From contig CAWFQK010000007.1 in assembly GCA_963817955.1 (NCBI GenBank), forward strand, positions 96,001-160,000: 64,000 bases of DNA, in the 5' to 3' direction. The first letter of the stretch is position 1, and the number at the start of each line of letters is the position of its first letter. The translations under genes and the position numbers were made by a program. The notes under the pieces are model-generated. The model was not told the origin of the DNA and ran no database searches. It saw only the letters and a list, made by a program, of their open reading frames with translations. Origin of the DNA: an uncultured Gemmatimonadaceae bacterium (GTDB taxonomy: Bacteria; Gemmatimonadota; Gemmatimonadetes; Gemmatimonadales; Gemmatimonadaceae). Below are positions 17,070 to 57,016 of this stretch, one piece after another.

Positions 17070-17170
17070 GAAATCGGCTTCCGCCGGTTCGGTAATTGGA
17101 ATAGTTAGCAGATTGTTGAACTACGAGTGAATCGCCAGCAATCGGTTACGCAGCTGCGAAGATCGTGGCC

Positions 17171-17235
17171 TGTCATCCTGAGCGAAGCTTGTCATCCTGA
17201 GCGAAGCTTGTCATCCTGAGCGAAGCGAAGGATCT
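17171..17235 (+). repeat. Three tandem REP-like units
   Basis: tgtcatcctgagcgaagct x2 followed by tgtcatcctgagcgaagcgaaggatct. Confidence 0.85.
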
Positions 17236-17258
17236 CTGTGACCGATAGAACCGCCTTT

Positions 17259-17565
17259 AACGCAGAGGTCGCAGAGAACTGCAAGAGAGAACTGCAGAGG
17301 ACCGGGAAGGATTGTCTCGCCTGGAAGTCTTGGCTGATGCCGTCGTGATACTCCGATGGTATCGCCCAGGTCGAGATTATCAGCGATATAGGCAGAATGA
17401 TTTTTGGACTCAGCATCCACGGTTCATTCCCCCGATACGCGCCTCCCTTTTCCGTACGCTTCCAGTTCCATTTTCCAGTTCTCTTGCAGTTCTCTTGCAG
17501 TTCTCTTTTGCAGTTCTCTTGCAGTTCTCTGCAGTTCTCTTGCAGTTCTCTGCGACCTCTGCGTT
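17259..17565. mobile_element. MITE/REPIN-like element, copy 1
   Basis: Perfect 30-bp TIR (17259-17288 / 17536-17565); internal gcagttctct-type tandem units; core shared with 22396-22671. Confidence 0.75.
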
Positions 17566-17816
17566 CAAAAGCTGTTCTACCGCTCTGCGTTCAAAAGCTG
17601 TTCCGGCCCTCGAAGTGATGCGCATGCCCTCGAGCTTCTGGCTCCTGTCCAGCACTGTTTAGGGGTGGTTGGTTGAATGCGTTGGGCACACGGCCAGTAG
17701 TCCATACCCAGAACCCAACCCGTCGGTTTCGTCCAGGCTCCGTTCCTTAGACACTTGATCGGCGAAAATGGGCACCCAGCTGTGCAAACTCGTCGAAATG
17801 CGGGGGCAAACGCGAA

Positions 17817-28418: not shown

Positions 28419-29059
28419 CGCGACCGGTGCCGCGTGGTGGGCGACGTGCGTGGGCCAAAGGCATGGTCTTCCTCATCGCGCTTCTTCCGCTGGCGCTGAC
28501 CGGGTGGCGTGTTGCAACCAATCGGCTTGGTGCCAATCCCATCCGCGAACTGGAGATTCAGACGGGCTTGTGGACGCTACGGCTGCTTGCGGTGACGCTG
28601 GCGCTCACGCCATTGCGCCGGAGCTTTGGCTGGAACTTTCTCGCCAGATATCGGCGGATGCTCGGCTTGTGCACATTCTTTTATGCGTGTGTGCACCTCA
28701 GCATGTGGGCCGCGGTGGACTGGTTCTTCGCCTGGGGCGACATGTGGCACGAGATCGTGAAGCACCAGTACATTTTCATCGGGATGCTCACGTGGCTGAT
28801 CCTGGTGCCGCTCGCCATCACGTCGACAAAGGGATGGGTGCGCCGGCTCGGTAAACGCTGGGTGCGACTTCACCGCCTGGTCTATGTCGCCGCGATCACG
28901 GGTACGGTGCACTATCTCTGGGCGGTGAAGAAGGACACCTTCTTTCCGCTCGTCTACCTCGCGGTTTTCGCGATGCTGCTTGCCTACCGCGTCTTCGACG
29001 CACGGCGAACGCCATTCCGCGTACCCAGGCCGGGATCTGGCGCTTCAGCGGCGGCGTAG
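28415..29059 (+). CDS. msrQ: Heme-binding membrane subunit MsrQ
   Basis: [24 protein letters not shown] start overlapping the msrP TGA. Confidence 0.92.
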
Positions 29060-29096
29060 GACCGTCGCGGGTTCGCACGGCGACTATGTTGCGTCT

Positions 29097-30260
29097 GTGA
29101 AACCTTCCACACCGCCCAATCAACTGTCGGCGTTCGCGATCACCGCGCCGGGACTCGAAGACCTCTGCGCGCGCGAGCTCGCCGCGATCGGGGTGACCGG
29201 AATGCCCGAGCCGGGGGGCGTCGCGTGGACTGGCACGCTCGATACCGTGGCCCGGGCCAACCTCTGGCTTCGGACCGCGAGTCGCGTGATCGTGCGGATC
29301 GCCGAGTTCCGCGCCAAGACGTTCTTTGAGCTGGAACGACATGCGCGTCGGATGGAGTGGGAGCGTTTCGTCTCGCCCGGCGTGCCAGTGGAGTTCCGCG
29401 TAACGTGCCGCAAGTCACGACTCTATCACAGCGGTGCGGTCGCCCAGCGCCTTGGCGATGCGGTCCAACTGCACGTGAAAGGTGCGCGGCTGGAGAGCAG
29501 CGCGAGCGATGACGATGAGGACTCTGCGTCCGGCGAGCGCCAGCTGTTCATAGTGCGCTTCGTGCATGACGCATGTACAGTGAGCGTCGACACCTCCGGT
29601 GCGCTCCTGCACCGCCGTGGATATCGGCAGCAACTTGCGAGAGCGCCGCTGCGCGAGACGTTGGCCGCGGCTGTGCTGCTCGGCGCCGGGTGGACGGGTG
29701 AGACGCCGCTCGTCGATCCGATGTGCGGCTCGGGAACGGTGCCCATCGAGGCGGCGCTCATCGCTCGCCGCATGGCGCCTGGACGCGATCGCTCGTTCGC
29801 ATTCCTGCGCTGGCCTGGGGCAGACGAGAAATCATGGAAACGACTGCTCGCCGATGCGCGCGCCGGCGAGCTGGAGCGATCGCCCATTATGATCAGTGGC
29901 TTCGATCGTGATGAGGGCGCCATCACGGCAGCTCGGGCGAACGCCGAACGCGCCGGTGTCGCGGCCGATATTTGCTTTGCCGCTCAGCCGGTGTCTGCAT
30001 TGGGCACAGCCGAGCCGCCGGGGCTCGTCGCGTCGAATCCGCCCTACGGCGTTCGGATAGGGGAAACGGCTGCGCTGCGAAATCTCTATGCGCAGCTGGG
30101 AAACGTGTTACGGCGCCATCGACCGGGTTGGACGCTGGCGTTGTTTTCGGCCGACAAGCAACTCGAGCGGCAGACGGGATTGTCGTTTGAGGAACGCTTC
30201 CGGTCGCGAAACGGCGGCATTGCCGTGCACCTCGTAGTGGCGGAGATACCAACGCGCTGA
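29097..30260 (+). CDS. THUMP-domain RNA methyltransferase (RlmL-like)
   Basis: LHRRGYR; APLRETLAA; DPMCGSGT; NPPYG; GTG start 6 nt after TATGTT. Confidence 0.9.
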   Translation: MKPSTPPNQLSAFAITAPGLEDLCARELAAIGVTGMPEPGGVAWTGTLDTVARANLWLRTASRVIVRIAEFRAKTFFELERHARRMEWERFVSPGVPVEFRVTCRKSRLYHSGAVAQRLGDAVQLHVKGARLESSASDDDEDSASGERQLFIVRFVHDACTVSVDTSGALLHRRGYRQQLARAPLRETLAAAVLLGAGWTGETPLVDPMCGSGTVPIEAALIARRMAPGRDRSFAFLRWPGADEKSWKRLLADARAGELERSPIMISGFDRDEGAITAARANAERAGVAADICFAAQPVSALGTAEPPGLVASNPPYGVRIGETAALRNLYAQLGNVLRRHRPGWTLALFSADKQLERQTGLSFEERFRSRNGGIAVHLVVAEIPTR

Positions 30261-30374
30261 ACGGTATCCCCGGCTAGGATACCTGTCATCCTTGTATCTC
30301 TGAGAATCACTAAGTCTCGCCCGTAAATTGGATGGCTGGTCGGGGTGGTAGCTCGTTCATCCTGATGACAGGCA

Positions 30375-30416
30375 TCCCGTGTCCCGTGTCCCGTCTCCCG
30401 ACTTCCGTGTCCCCGA
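30375..30416 (+). repeat. Heptamer tandem repeat (TCCCGTG-like) x6
   Basis: tcccgtg tcccgtg tcccgtc tcccgac ttccgtg tccccga; same unit as 56961-57016. Confidence 0.75.
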
Positions 30417-30468
30417 ACCTTCGCGAAGGTCATTAGCGCAGGAACCGGGCGTTTACCTGATCATGCCT

Positions 30469-31035
30469 CCACCACCTGGCTTCGAAACCCGTCCACCTGG
30501 CTTCGGCAACGGTCCACTCGACTGGGGTGAGCGTCCACTCCATTTCGGCGATCGGTTACCTCATTTCGCCGATCGGTCACGCCATTTTGGCGATCGGTTA
30601 CCTCATTTCGCCGATCGGTCACCTCATTTCGGCGATCGGTCAGCTCATTTCGGCGGTTGTCCACTCCATTTGGGCGAGCGTCCATGTGATTTGGGCGACC
30701 GTCCATGTGATTTGGGTGATCGTCCACTTGGCTTGGGTAACCGTTCACTTGGCTTGGGTAACTGCGCACTTGTACTCGGTGAGTGTCCACTTGACCGCGG
30801 CAAACGTTCAGCCGACCTCGGCAAGTGTGCACCCGACATCGGCAAGTGTTCACTCGACCGCGGGAGACGGTTACTCGACCTCGGCAAGCGTTCGGGCGGC
30901 TGCGGGATCCGGTCAGGCGACCATGGCACTCGGTCAGGCGACCGTGGGATTCGGTCAGCCGACTTCGGCATTCATCCACTTCATTTCGGTACTTGAATAC
31001 TTCATTGCGGCGTTAAGACGCGTCACTTCGGCGAC
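30469..31035. repeat. Degenerate 21-nt tandem array, ~27 units
   Basis: Units such as cggtcacctcatttcggcgat and cgtccacttggcttgggtaac stay in exact 21-nt register with no indel. Confidence 0.9.
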
Positions 31036-31133
31036 TCGATGCCGACCCGCGTTGAGTATTCTTGCCACCGCGCCGCTCCATGAGGGTCGTTAGGTCGTCC
31101 TGCGACCTGCTTCACCGCACTGCCTTTCACCGG

Positions 31134-31159
31134 AAGCGGCTGCTTACACAGCCGTTTTT
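31134..31159 (+). terminator. Intrinsic terminator-like hairpin upstream of the hybrid kinase
   Basis: aagcggctg-cttaca-cagccg-ttttt. Confidence 0.6.
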
Positions 31160-31276
31160 CTTGTGTCCGGTTCTTGCATAACTGCCCCTCGTACTCGTCC
31201 TCTGCATGCCGCATCGACCGCCCCTGGTTCATCGACGGTGGCAATCGGCTTTGTACCCTTTCGTCAGGAGTCGCCC

Positions 31277-33796
31277 ATGGGCGTCGGCGAAGGTCCAGAG
31301 GGGATCGATCGGGAAACCCCTCTATCGAGCGCACGCAGCAATGGCGGGAGTGCTCGGCGAGCGCGAAAAACCGCAACTAAGAGCGGTTCGCACTCCAAGC
31401 GAACCGATCCCGACGACGTCCGCATCACGCGTGACGAAAACATCGAGGTTCCACCCGCCGACAACGGCGAGCAATCGGTCACTGCTCCGGTGCAACAACG
31501 TCGAACCCGCCAACGCTCGCTACAACGGTTGCTCGCTGGGTTGCGTGCCGTGAACGCCGGCGACTTCTCCGTGCGCCTCACCGCCGACGGCGAGCCGCTC
31601 ATGGCGGAGATCATAGATCTCTTCAACCGCGTCGCGCAGAAGCAAGCGCGCCTCGTGGACGAGCTCGCGCGCGTGCGCACGGCCGTCGGGCGCGAAGGCA
31701 AGATGCGCGATCGCGTATGGATGGCCGGTGCCGAGGGACAATGGATCAAGGCGGTGGACTCGGTGAACAGCCTGATCACCGATCTCGTACAACCGACGTC
31801 CGAAGTCTCTCGTGTCATTCAGGCGGTTGCCGAAGGCGATCTGTCGCAGAAGATCGCCGGCGAAGCCCAGGGCGAGTTCGACGAGCTCAAGGCGAACATC
31901 AATCAGATGATTGCCAAGCTGCGCGAGACCACGGAGCGCAATCAGGAGCAGGACTGGCTCAAGACCAACCTGGCCAAGTTCAGCCGCATGATGCAGGGCC
32001 AGAAGGATCTGGCAAGCGTATCGCGCCTCATCATGAGCGAACTCACACCGTTGGTGAGCGCGCACCATGGCGCGTTCTTCATCTCCGATCAGGACGCGGG
32101 CGGTGTCGTGCTCAAGCTCGTGGCGAGCTACGCGTATCGAGCACGAAGGCAGGTCGCCAAGCAATTCGCTCCGGGAGAGGGGCTCGTCGGTCAGGCAGCG
32201 CTCGAGAAGCAGCCGATCCTGCTGCAGAACGTGCCTGGCGACTATATCCAGATCACCTCGGGCCTCGGCGAAGCACCGCCGCGCAACATCATCGTCCTGC
32301 CGATCCTGTTCGAGGGCGACGTCAAGGCGGTGATCGAGCTCGCGAGCTTCCTGCCGTTCAGTCAGATCCACCAGGCCTTTCTCGACCAGCTCGCTGAATC
32401 GCTCGGCGTAGTACTGAACATGATTCAGGCGAACATGCGGACTGAGGAGTTGCTCGAGCAATCGCAGCAATTGACCCAGGAGTTGCAGAGCCAGTCGAAG
32501 GAGCTCCAGCAACAGCAGGACGAGCTCAAGCGGTCCAACGCCGAGCTCGAGGAGAAGGCTGAACAGCTCTCACTCAGCTCCAAATACAAGAGCGAGTTCT
32601 TGGCGAACGTGTCGCACGAACTGCGTACCCCGCTCAACTCGCTGCTCATTCTCTCCAAGCTTCTCGCGGAGAACAAGGACAGCAACCTCACGAAGAAGCA
32701 GGTGGAGTTCGCGCAGACGATCTACTCGTCAGGCACGGACCTGCTCAATCTGATCAACGACATTCTCGACCTGTCGAAGGTGGAAGCTGGAAAGATGGAT
32801 GTCAGCCCGACCGACGTGTCGATGACCGAATTTCGTGCGTTTGTCGATCGCACGTTCGGGCCGGTGGCCGAACAGAAGCATCTGAGCTTCACCGTGGACA
32901 TCTCGCCTGACGTGCCGTCGCCAATCTTCACCGACGAGAGGCGCTTGCAGCAGGTGATCAAGAACCTGCTGTCCAACGCGTTCAAGTTTACGGCGCACGG
33001 TGGTGTCACGCTGTCCGTTCGCCGCGCCGAGAGCAACCGGCGCTTCGTGTCGCGGATGCTGGATCGCGTGGAAGGTGGCGTGATCGCATTCGCGGTGAAG
33101 GACACCGGTATTGGCATTCCGCAAACCAAGCAGCAGCTCATCTTCGAGGCGTTCCAACAAGCGGATGGTACGACGAGTCGCAAGTTCGGGGGGACCGGAC
33201 TTGGCTTGTCGATCAGCCGTGAGATCGCGGGGCTGTTGGGCGGCGAGATTCGCGTCGACAGCACGCCGGGTGAGGGCAGCACGTTCACGTTGTTCCTGCC
33301 GGCTCGATATGTGGAGCGTGAGGGTGCGGCGCGCGGCGCAGGCGGCGCAGGCGGCGAGGGAAGCGAAGCGACACGTTTGCCGCGGTCCGCTGGCTTCGAC
33401 GACGACCGCGACCGCGCCGTGTTTGCGGGGAAGCGCATTCTCATCGTCGACGACGATGTACGCAACGTGTATTCGCTCACGAGTGTGCTCGAACAGCATG
33501 GCATGAACGTCTCGTTTGCCGAGAACGGCAAAGACGCCGTTGCCAAGCTCGAGTCCGCGCCGAGAACCGACCTGGTGCTGATGGACGTGATGATGCCGGG
33601 CATGGACGGCTATGAAACGACGCGCGCAATTCGGGCGCGTCCGCTGTTCCGTTCGCTGCCTATCATTGCGCTCACGGCCAAGGCCATGAAGGAAGATCGG
33701 GACAAGTCCATCGCGGCCGGTGTATCGGACTATATCACGAAGCCGGTGGACAACGATCAACTGCTGAGTCTGATGCGCGTATGGCTGTACCGCTGA
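31277..33796 (+). CDS. Cytoplasmic hybrid histidine kinase HAMP-GAF-HisKA-HATPase-REC (shortened poly-HAMP type)
   Basis: RBS aggag; EQDWLKTNLAKF; SHELRTPLNS; GGTGLGLSISRE; single C-terminal REC. Confidence 0.92.
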   Translation: MGVGEGPEGIDRETPLSSARSNGGSARRARKTATKSGSHSKRTDPDDVRITRDENIEVPPADNGEQSVTAPVQQRRTRQRSLQRLLAGLRAVNAGDFSVRLTADGEPLMAEIIDLFNRVAQKQARLVDELARVRTAVGREGKMRDRVWMAGAEGQWIKAVDSVNSLITDLVQPTSEVSRVIQAVAEGDLSQKIAGEAQGEFDELKANINQMIAKLRETTERNQEQDWLKTNLAKFSRMMQGQKDLASVSRLIMSELTPLVSAHHGAFFISDQDAGGVVLKLVASYAYRARRQVAKQFAPGEGLVGQAALEKQPILLQNVPGDYIQITSGLGEAPPRNIIVLPILFEGDVKAVIELASFLPFSQIHQAFLDQLAESLGVVLNMIQANMRTEELLEQSQQLTQELQSQSKELQQQQDELKRSNAELEEKAEQLSLSSKYKSEFLANVSHELRTPLNSLLILSKLLAENKDSNLTKKQVEFAQTIYSSGTDLLNLINDILDLSKVEAGKMDVSPTDVSMTEFRAFVDRTFGPVAEQKHLSFTVDISPDVPSPIFTDERRLQQVIKNLLSNAFKFTAHGGVTLSVRRAESNRRFVSRMLDRVEGGVIAFAVKDTGIGIPQTKQQLIFEAFQQADGTTSRKFGGTGLGLSISREIAGLLGGEIRVDSTPGEGSTFTLFLPARYVEREGAARGAGGAGGEGSEATRLPRSAGFDDDRDRAVFAGKRILIVDDDVRNVYSLTSVLEQHGMNVSFAENGKDAVAKLESAPRTDLVLMDVMMPGMDGYETTRAIRARPLFRSLPIIALTAKAMKEDRDKSIAAGVSDYITKPVDNDQLLSLMRVWLYR

Positions 33797-56651: not shown

Positions 56652-56696
56652 CGGGAAAGATTCGTCGTTTCGCCAAGCGACGGCAAGGCCGGGATG

Positions 56697-57016
<320 letters not shown>

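Follow-up and report, generated by a model that had tools for sequence, protein, structure and literature searches.

What a strictly phased array of 21-nt units is doing between two genes of an uncultured Gemmatimonadaceae bacterium is the question raised by this locus. The array lies at 30469-31035 of the window, which is the whole 64,000-nucleotide stretch of DNA that was analysed. An earlier note, made from the letters alone, had set three readings side by side, a heptad-repeat coiled-coil or solenoid microprotein, a DNA-binding array or a repetitive RNA, and had taken the array and its flanks for a self-contained module.

Structure of the array

We found 27 units of 21 nt in a single register without an indel. 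The self-identity of the array was 0.70 at a lag of 21 nt, 0.65 at 42 nt and 0.61 at 63 nt, with only 0.19-0.32 at the remaining lags between 1 and 69, while lag-21 identity across 2000 shuffles averaged 0.26 and reached at most 0.33. The lag identities and shuffles confirm the strict phase and the count of about 27 units given in the earlier note. Unit-to-unit identity falls from 0.70 for neighbours to 0.49 for units nine apart, so the gradual drift described there, with neighbours most alike, is real; this decay with distance and the period of 21 nt also bear out its statement that the array is not CRISPR. A single column is invariant (G, in 27/27 units), and the final two units are weak, with window identity of 0.48 and then 0.36. 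The coordinates of the locus are collected in Table 1.

Table 1. Features of the array locus and its flanks (positions in the window).
Feature	Position	Strand	Description
Upstream neighbour, RlmL-like THUMP methyltransferase gene	28980..30260	+	PF01170, PF22020
Left stem-loop, of separate origin	30277..30377		Palindromic arms around an 82-nt piece (30283-30364)
Heptamers, of separate origin	30375..30436		7-nt tandem repeats ending in a dispersed palindrome
5' lead-in	30441..30480	+	85% identity over 40 nt with the C1 sister copy; no cassette promoter block
Array body, units 1-24	30469..30972	+	Homologous to, and broadly collinear with, the full-cassette leader array G000:C4:1266117-1266778
Units 25-27	30973..31035	+	Common to the four gene-less copies
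Tail	31036..31073	+	Aligns with the inner part of the IS1182-type right end; terminal inverted repeat lost here
Terminator-like hairpin followed by a T run	31134..31160	+	Seen as a pair; the terminator scanner made no call
Downstream neighbour, HAMP-GAF hybrid sensor kinase gene	31277..33796	+	Directly after rlmL in 5/27 congeners

An Rfam search with the window array returned nothing above the gathering threshold, the best match being c-di-GMP-II at 20 bits vs a threshold of 40. Folding z-scores against dinucleotide shuffles were -2.3 (+ strand) and -1.0 (- strand), and the excess was gone against column-permuted arrays (-0.5 and 0.1, respectively).

Coding potential of the array

The three open frames and the heptads listed in the earlier note are all present, yet three open frames also appear in 14% of arrays in which the 21 columns were permuted (first 25 units used). 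Across the six frames, pN/pS between adjacent units of the window array was 0.69-1.23, and the best of the six was not below this column-permuted null (P=0.78). For comparison we used 30 arrays with at least six in-register units (12/42 were dropped). Best-frame pN/pS beat the null median in 13/30, a codon-position pattern exceeded the permuted control in 10/30 by entropy and 8/30 by GC, no 3-nt substructure was seen, and open frames were equally frequent in sense (27/30) and antisense (27/30). The codon-position test that the note had proposed for each frame returned neither purifying selection nor codon-position bias in any of them. The 113-nt end common to the four gene-less copies behaved alike (pN/pS 0.84-1.29).

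Searches with the encoded peptides found no family or homologue. Four array ORF frames or parts of them found nothing above cut-off in Pfam, three array ORFs had no match in PHROGs, four were absent from the protein collection, the homologue search with the minus-frame ORF of the window array was empty, and its + frame reached a best Atlas similarity of only 0.81.

A multi-copy cassette with a 21-nt leader array

The genome scan for 21-nt periodicity suggested by the earlier note returned 47 intervals, a few of which are ordinary coiled-coil genes. In 15/47, always on one strand, a promoter-like block, a pseudoknot and a gene are all present, and this cassette runs from the promoter-like block through a 21-nt array, an H-type pseudoknot and a Shine-Dalgarno site to the gene, whose product, a basic three-helix rod, is here called the partner protein. 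A further 23/47 intervals have none of promoter block, pseudoknot and gene, and these include the window copy and three sisters. Viewed from the gene, the array lies directly upstream of 19/22 partner-gene loci in this genome (3/22 have none). In relatives, the top lag was 21 or 42 in 31/42 upstream regions vs 0/27 downstream regions, and the same was true, by our own count, of 17/24 further loci, mostly of a second family. Unit sequences differ widely between loci, and the correlation of array sequence with protein identity is weak (rho 0.19, P 0.0045, n=28). Two tandem pairs of partner genes were also seen, at G000:C1:440970-442472 and G158:C25:277682-280017.

The promoter-like block has 23 occurrences in the genome, stands at the 5' end of 22 arrays and has a 20-nt spacer, unusual for sigma-70. 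It was found in 1/39 relatives' loci and is largely specific to this genome. Arrays of paralogous cassettes diverge at about the synonymous rate (pN/pS 0.77-1.07) and keep a few nearly fixed positions per unit. They change by whole units: 45/108 pairwise gaps among paralogue cassettes measure 21, 42, 63 or 84 nt. Another 34/108 are of 1 nt and may be assembly errors, and with so many 1-nt indels in the assembly, some broken cassette copies may be sequencing errors. Near G000:C4 493000-494800, groEL and groES appear by eye to be frameshifted, which points to uncorrected assembly indels.

Rfam gave no relevant match for 13 cassette loci. As RNA, leader arrays folded no better than column-permuted controls (mean z -0.6), and single units do not fold. 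Literature searches, at the level of listings, returned no description of this cassette, and we regard the combination of array, pseudoknot and basic-rod gene as undescribed. The account given here as a whole, of a stranded leader from this cassette and of how the intact cassette may act, is on balance slightly more probable than not.

The window copy as a gene-less leader

Four further homologues of the window array (71-75% identity) are present in the genome, and one of them, at C4:1266036, is a full cassette with an array of the same type. The window array and the leader array of this cassette are 75% identical (E 1.8e-29, alignment z 30), their early and late units are similarly ordered, and the + strand of the window corresponds to the sense strand of the cassette (profile score 18.9 sense, 3.7 antisense). 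The window copy has no promoter block, no pseudoknot by model and no partner gene. A stretch in its last unit resembles, by eye only, the 5' half of the cassette pseudoknot and was missed by the model; a candidate pseudoknot in the tail was rejected, with a score of 10 vs the threshold of 13, no model match and an IS-derived 3' half. Comparison at the sequence level shows that the window array copies the leader of a multi-copy cassette and is itself non-coding, with neither promoter nor gene.

The gene-less copies share an insertion sequence (IS) right end, which we take to be of IS1182 type. Two sister copies (C1:558308 and C4:1663818) retain its terminal inverted repeat in full, and the last ~40 bases of the window copy align with its inner part. 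The same right end stands at the start of short inverted-repeat elements that form a family, and a transposase remnant at C2:414189 terminates in it; a match to DUF772 is below cut-off. One IS end only was found in each orphan, and two of the four lack the terminal repeat; no second inverted terminal repeat was found at the orphans, the end being eroded in the window, and no intact transposase of the type was found in this genome. In carrying an IS right end and no transposase, the orphans resemble MITE-like derivatives of an IS1182-type element; they differ in having one end where two inverted repeats with a target duplication would be expected, and a cassette leader as passenger. An intact element with the same IS end in another genome (G086) carries no array, and it shows no significant similarity past the last 30 nt (z -0.1 to 1.0). 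We consider it probable that a piece of cassette leader became fused to the inner side of an IS1182-type right end and was copied to four sites, the window copy, inserted between rlmL and the sensor kinase, being a decaying relic. The copy at C6:89331 shows the first step of cassette loss, with promoter block, array and pseudoknot kept and the gene cut after seven codons.

Short elements with inverted repeats, 470-840 bp in length and bounded by ends of IS1182 type, occur as about a dozen paired copies in the genome, one of them at positions 17109-17650 of the window; TTAG or CTAA often adjoins them, and palindromic and 11-nt repeats fill them. At G000:C2:888485-888805, a leaderless first half of a partner gene is joined to what appears by eye to be type I methyltransferase sequence.

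Flanks and insertion site

The left stem-loop, the heptamers and the right terminator, which the earlier note had read as the edges of one module, are all present as sequences, but the terminator was not called by the scanner. The module itself does not hold together: the stem-loop encloses an IS end piece, and the heptamers and their palindrome are genome-wide repeats. The enclosed 82-nt piece is 100% identical to the end of an element at C2:1122062, which we take to be IS110-like from recognition of its transposase. This element (G000:C2:1122062-1120800) sits in the same type of palindromic repeat, and the window keeps a left-end stub of it only. The 7-nt tandem repeats themselves occupy 30375-30413, the palindrome that closes the heptamers has at least 14 other copies in the genome, and an inverted pair of 7-nt tandem arrays with the same heptamer lies at 56696-57013 of the window.

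We examined rlmL in 27 congeners. The junction of rlmL and kinase has no array in the 5/5 that are syntenic, where the highest lag-21 value was 0.47, under the cut-off; the other 22/27 have different neighbours or too little sequence at rlmL. Since the array is absent from these five congeners and the stem-loop contains the end of another IS, the block between rlmL and the kinase is, on this comparison, a lineage-specific patchwork in which the array is a leader left stranded. Ahead of the kinase, a short motif (31167-31178 of the window) is found again behind rlmL in many congeners, irrespective of the next gene, and is likely a native promoter element. At congener locus L074, just after rlmL, a 33-nt periodic repeat occupies the equivalent position.

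Three other accounts of the array can be set against this origin. Recruitment of the window copy to serve rlmL or the sensor kinase locally, as a regulator or a terminator region, would fit an array that has kept all 27 units free of indels, where two sister copies have not, and that lies on the rlmL strand ahead of the terminator-like hairpin. The array is missing, however, from all of the syntenic congeners and from 60/60 relatives' genomes by DNA search (four pattern scans were likewise empty), and the four orphans adjoin unrelated genes in differing orientations, which leaves recruitment the least probable reading we considered. Nor is it at all probable that the whole family is functionless everywhere and stems from a 21-nt stretch, within the tail of an IS1182-type transposase gene, that was amplified in tandem by neutral processes. 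In favour are the IS origin of the 3' tail, a faint resemblance of units 25-27 to the transposase tail, and a divergence among paralogue arrays (0.15) equal to the synonymous rate of the gene; yet the intact G086 element lacks an array and significant similarity past its last 30 nt, the same array type heads a full cassette, and unrelated sequences hold the same period before the same gene in two families. Improbable too, by a lesser degree, is the microprotein of the earlier note, in the form of a translated heptad-repeat ORF whose product might serve the downstream helical protein as binding partner or toxin. A period of exactly seven codons in nearly all loci, the open frames of the window array and whole-unit indels that preserve the frame all speak for it, as do in-frame heptad extensions on the gene in 5/12 database proteins inspected, which gene callers would yield anyway. 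It fails because no reading frame is under protein constraint; moreover, neither 3-nt substructure nor a strand preference of open frames is seen, predicted peptides vary between loci, the + frame ATG is not preserved in the C1 sister copy, and the array ORFs tested have no homologue or family. For the window copy itself, a relic is thus the likeliest reading.

The partner protein

The partner protein has 215-260 residues and is encoded at 22 loci in this genome, many of them in pieces. Its profile matches 4480 clusters (50% identity) at E<=0.001, and the family is carried by 20/150 family genomes and 47/200 phylum genomes. The nearest Atlas clusters are unnamed and mostly from Gemmatimonadota or Acidobacteriota. 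In the predicted structure (pLDDT 95.5), the protein forms an elongated bundle of helices, two of which have 54-56 residues, and its tail is unstructured. The core is basic, with a median net charge of +9 and eight conserved Arg/Lys positions, and 68/151 homologues end in Ala-Ala vs 29/1451 control ORFs. Such Ala-Ala C-terminal ends act as ClpXP degrons. Recent paralogue genes are under purifying selection (pN/pS 0.14-0.36).

No family library searched, Pfam, PADLOC and PHROGs included, names the protein; 125 members share no Pfam family, and 0/125 match PADLOC. A fold search of the PDB and viral libraries found nothing at E<=0.001 and no solved homologue, the best match (Z 10.1, rmsd 4.0, 178 aligned) lying within the range of generic helical bundles. 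DUF6261 (PF19775), an Atlas lead at 0.86 only, was dropped after 0 profile matches at E<=10 in the genome and none in the 125 members.

The leader pseudoknot

An H-type pseudoknot scored at or above the threshold of 13 in 34/75 leaders vs 4/225 mononucleotide shuffles, the other 41/75 leaders falling below it. In an alignment of 26 leaders, 84% of cells pair and both sides vary in 10/16 pairs; in stem 2, one pair is A-U in 16 leaders and G-C in eight. The covariation score was reached by 0/500 shuffles; the 26 leaders were picked for showing the motif, and this selection and their relatedness inflate the result. A model of stem 1 only, run on genomes outside its building set, gave seven matches, of which five lie directly before a partner gene and have, by eye, a stem-2 complement. 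Three of these five loci have a period of 21 or 42, and two have no array at the 0.5 cut-off.

Other leader structures were seen as well. Second-family leaders L107, L109, L114, L116, L121 and L122 have a second pseudoknot geometry before the same gene, in which the loop is long and the second stem follows with hardly any linker. In five leaders of one genus (L050, L052, L053, L056 and L057), a larger structure is present, in which the same short paired motif brackets an extra hairpin.

A possible mode of action

For the intact cassette, we tentatively propose self-repression, through assembly of the basic protein on the RNA of its own leader. The array would be transcribed as a 5' leader, and the rod protein would be nucleated at the pseudoknot beside its own ribosome-binding site. 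It would then load cooperatively along the array, one footprint per 21 nt, and repress its own translation. The Ala-Ala C-terminus would make the protein short-lived, and the array would thereby serve as a counter or a sink, adjusted in length by whole units. Autoregulation through the leader RNA is favoured because the structurally conserved element is a pseudoknot between the array and the ribosome-binding site, and because the protein is basic and probably short-lived. With the array on the 5' side of the pseudoknot, the direction of loading would be away from the ribosome-binding site. This order speaks against the account, as do the leaders below the pseudoknot threshold, the gene loci lacking an array directly upstream and the weak correlation of array sequence with protein identity. 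An extension of this scheme is a good deal more doubtful: a self-limiting protein-RNA module, in which a short-lived basic rod, nucleated at the pseudoknot, polymerises on its leader, the period and not the sequence is the signal, the module spreads within genomes without a transposase of its own, and gene-less arrays may serve as trans decoys that titrate the protein.

The main rival to leader-RNA autoregulation acts on DNA, the protein binding the duplex every two helical turns on an operator or a centromere-like scaffold, with orphans that could bind in trans; we think it unlikely, though by no means negligible. Two helical turns are 21 bp, and the period of 21 nt is near a multiple of the helical turn. 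The partner protein is basic, only a few anchor positions per unit are fixed, the arrays fold no better than their column-permuted controls, and two helices of 54-56 residues are, by our own arithmetic on the predicted structure, about as long as 21 bp. Against this stand the absence of a 10-11 nt sub-period, dyad symmetry above control in only 17/30 arrays, a partner without a known DNA-binding fold or family, and the covarying pseudoknot at the 3' end of the array, which DNA binding leaves unexplained. A DNA-binding array and a repetitive RNA, both named in the earlier note, remain candidates for the intact cassette, and the covarying pseudoknot tilts the choice towards RNA. Much less probable than either is that the cassette functions like a toxin-antitoxin system of type III, in which repeat RNA neutralises the downstream protein. 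Multi-copy spread and purifying selection fit an addiction module, but the partner has no ToxN-like or defence family match, the element between array and gene is a pseudoknot without a U run, and a degron is more usual in an antitoxin than in a toxin. The order of promoter, tandem repeats, structured element and gene is the same in type III loci (PMC3401426), where toxIN, cptIN and tenpIN are described with two to six near-identical repeats of 31-62 nt, each a pseudoknot, then a terminator and an RNase toxin. A pseudoknot is involved in both systems (PMC3401426), and tandem repeats lie behind a promoter and upstream of a single gene in both, which is true of the intact cassette and not of the window copy. 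The cassette differs in its degenerate, drifting 21-nt units, which do not fold singly, and in the one pseudoknot after the array; its protein is all-helical in the model and of no known family, with the proviso that absence from a fold list does not exclude a family.

Comparison with other array systems

The operator of T4 gene 32 has a pseudoknot, then repeats of 4-5 nt, then the ribosome-binding site, and its product is an ssDNA-binding protein (PMC535899). The likeness lies in a leader pseudoknot with short repeats, for which nucleation and cooperative loading of the gene's own product have been proposed there (PMC535899). In the cassette, by contrast, an array of 200-1000 nt comes first and the pseudoknot lies 3' of it. 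Units of plasmid iterons and centromere-like arrays likewise span about two helical turns and adjoin a gene whose product is the presumed binder. The cassette differs from them in having no recognised Rep or Par gene, the partner protein having no family match, and in its chromosomal multi-copy distribution, its fixed anchor bases, of which there are only a few, and its covarying RNA structure.

CRISPR, TIGR and VIPR arrays share with the cassette a strictly periodic non-coding array next to one protein gene. They have periods of 60-79, 18 and 5 nt and independent variable segments, according to a survey of periodic intergenic arrays (10.64898/2026.10.21.760802). The cassette has a period of 21 nt and neighbouring units that are most alike, as from local duplication. 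In searches bearing on an effector of Cas, Tas or Vipr type, its partner gave no family match and no specific fold match. In the section considered here, the survey also gives periods of 10, 8 and 7 nt and names no 21-nt class, some multiple-of-three periods having been removed (10.64898/2026.10.21.760802). The accessible text of a further preprint mentions neither 21-nt repeats nor Gemmatimonad genomes (10.64898/2026.09.22.753630).

Significance

The novelty of this locus attaches to the cassette and not to the window copy. The partner family is large, unnamed and under purifying selection, and an exact period of 21 nt is kept in front of it while the letters turn over. With the covarying pseudoknot and the Ala-Ala tail, a puzzling repeat becomes a small testable system of one protein and one leader RNA. 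If the period alone is read, this would be an unusual mode of nucleic-acid recognition.
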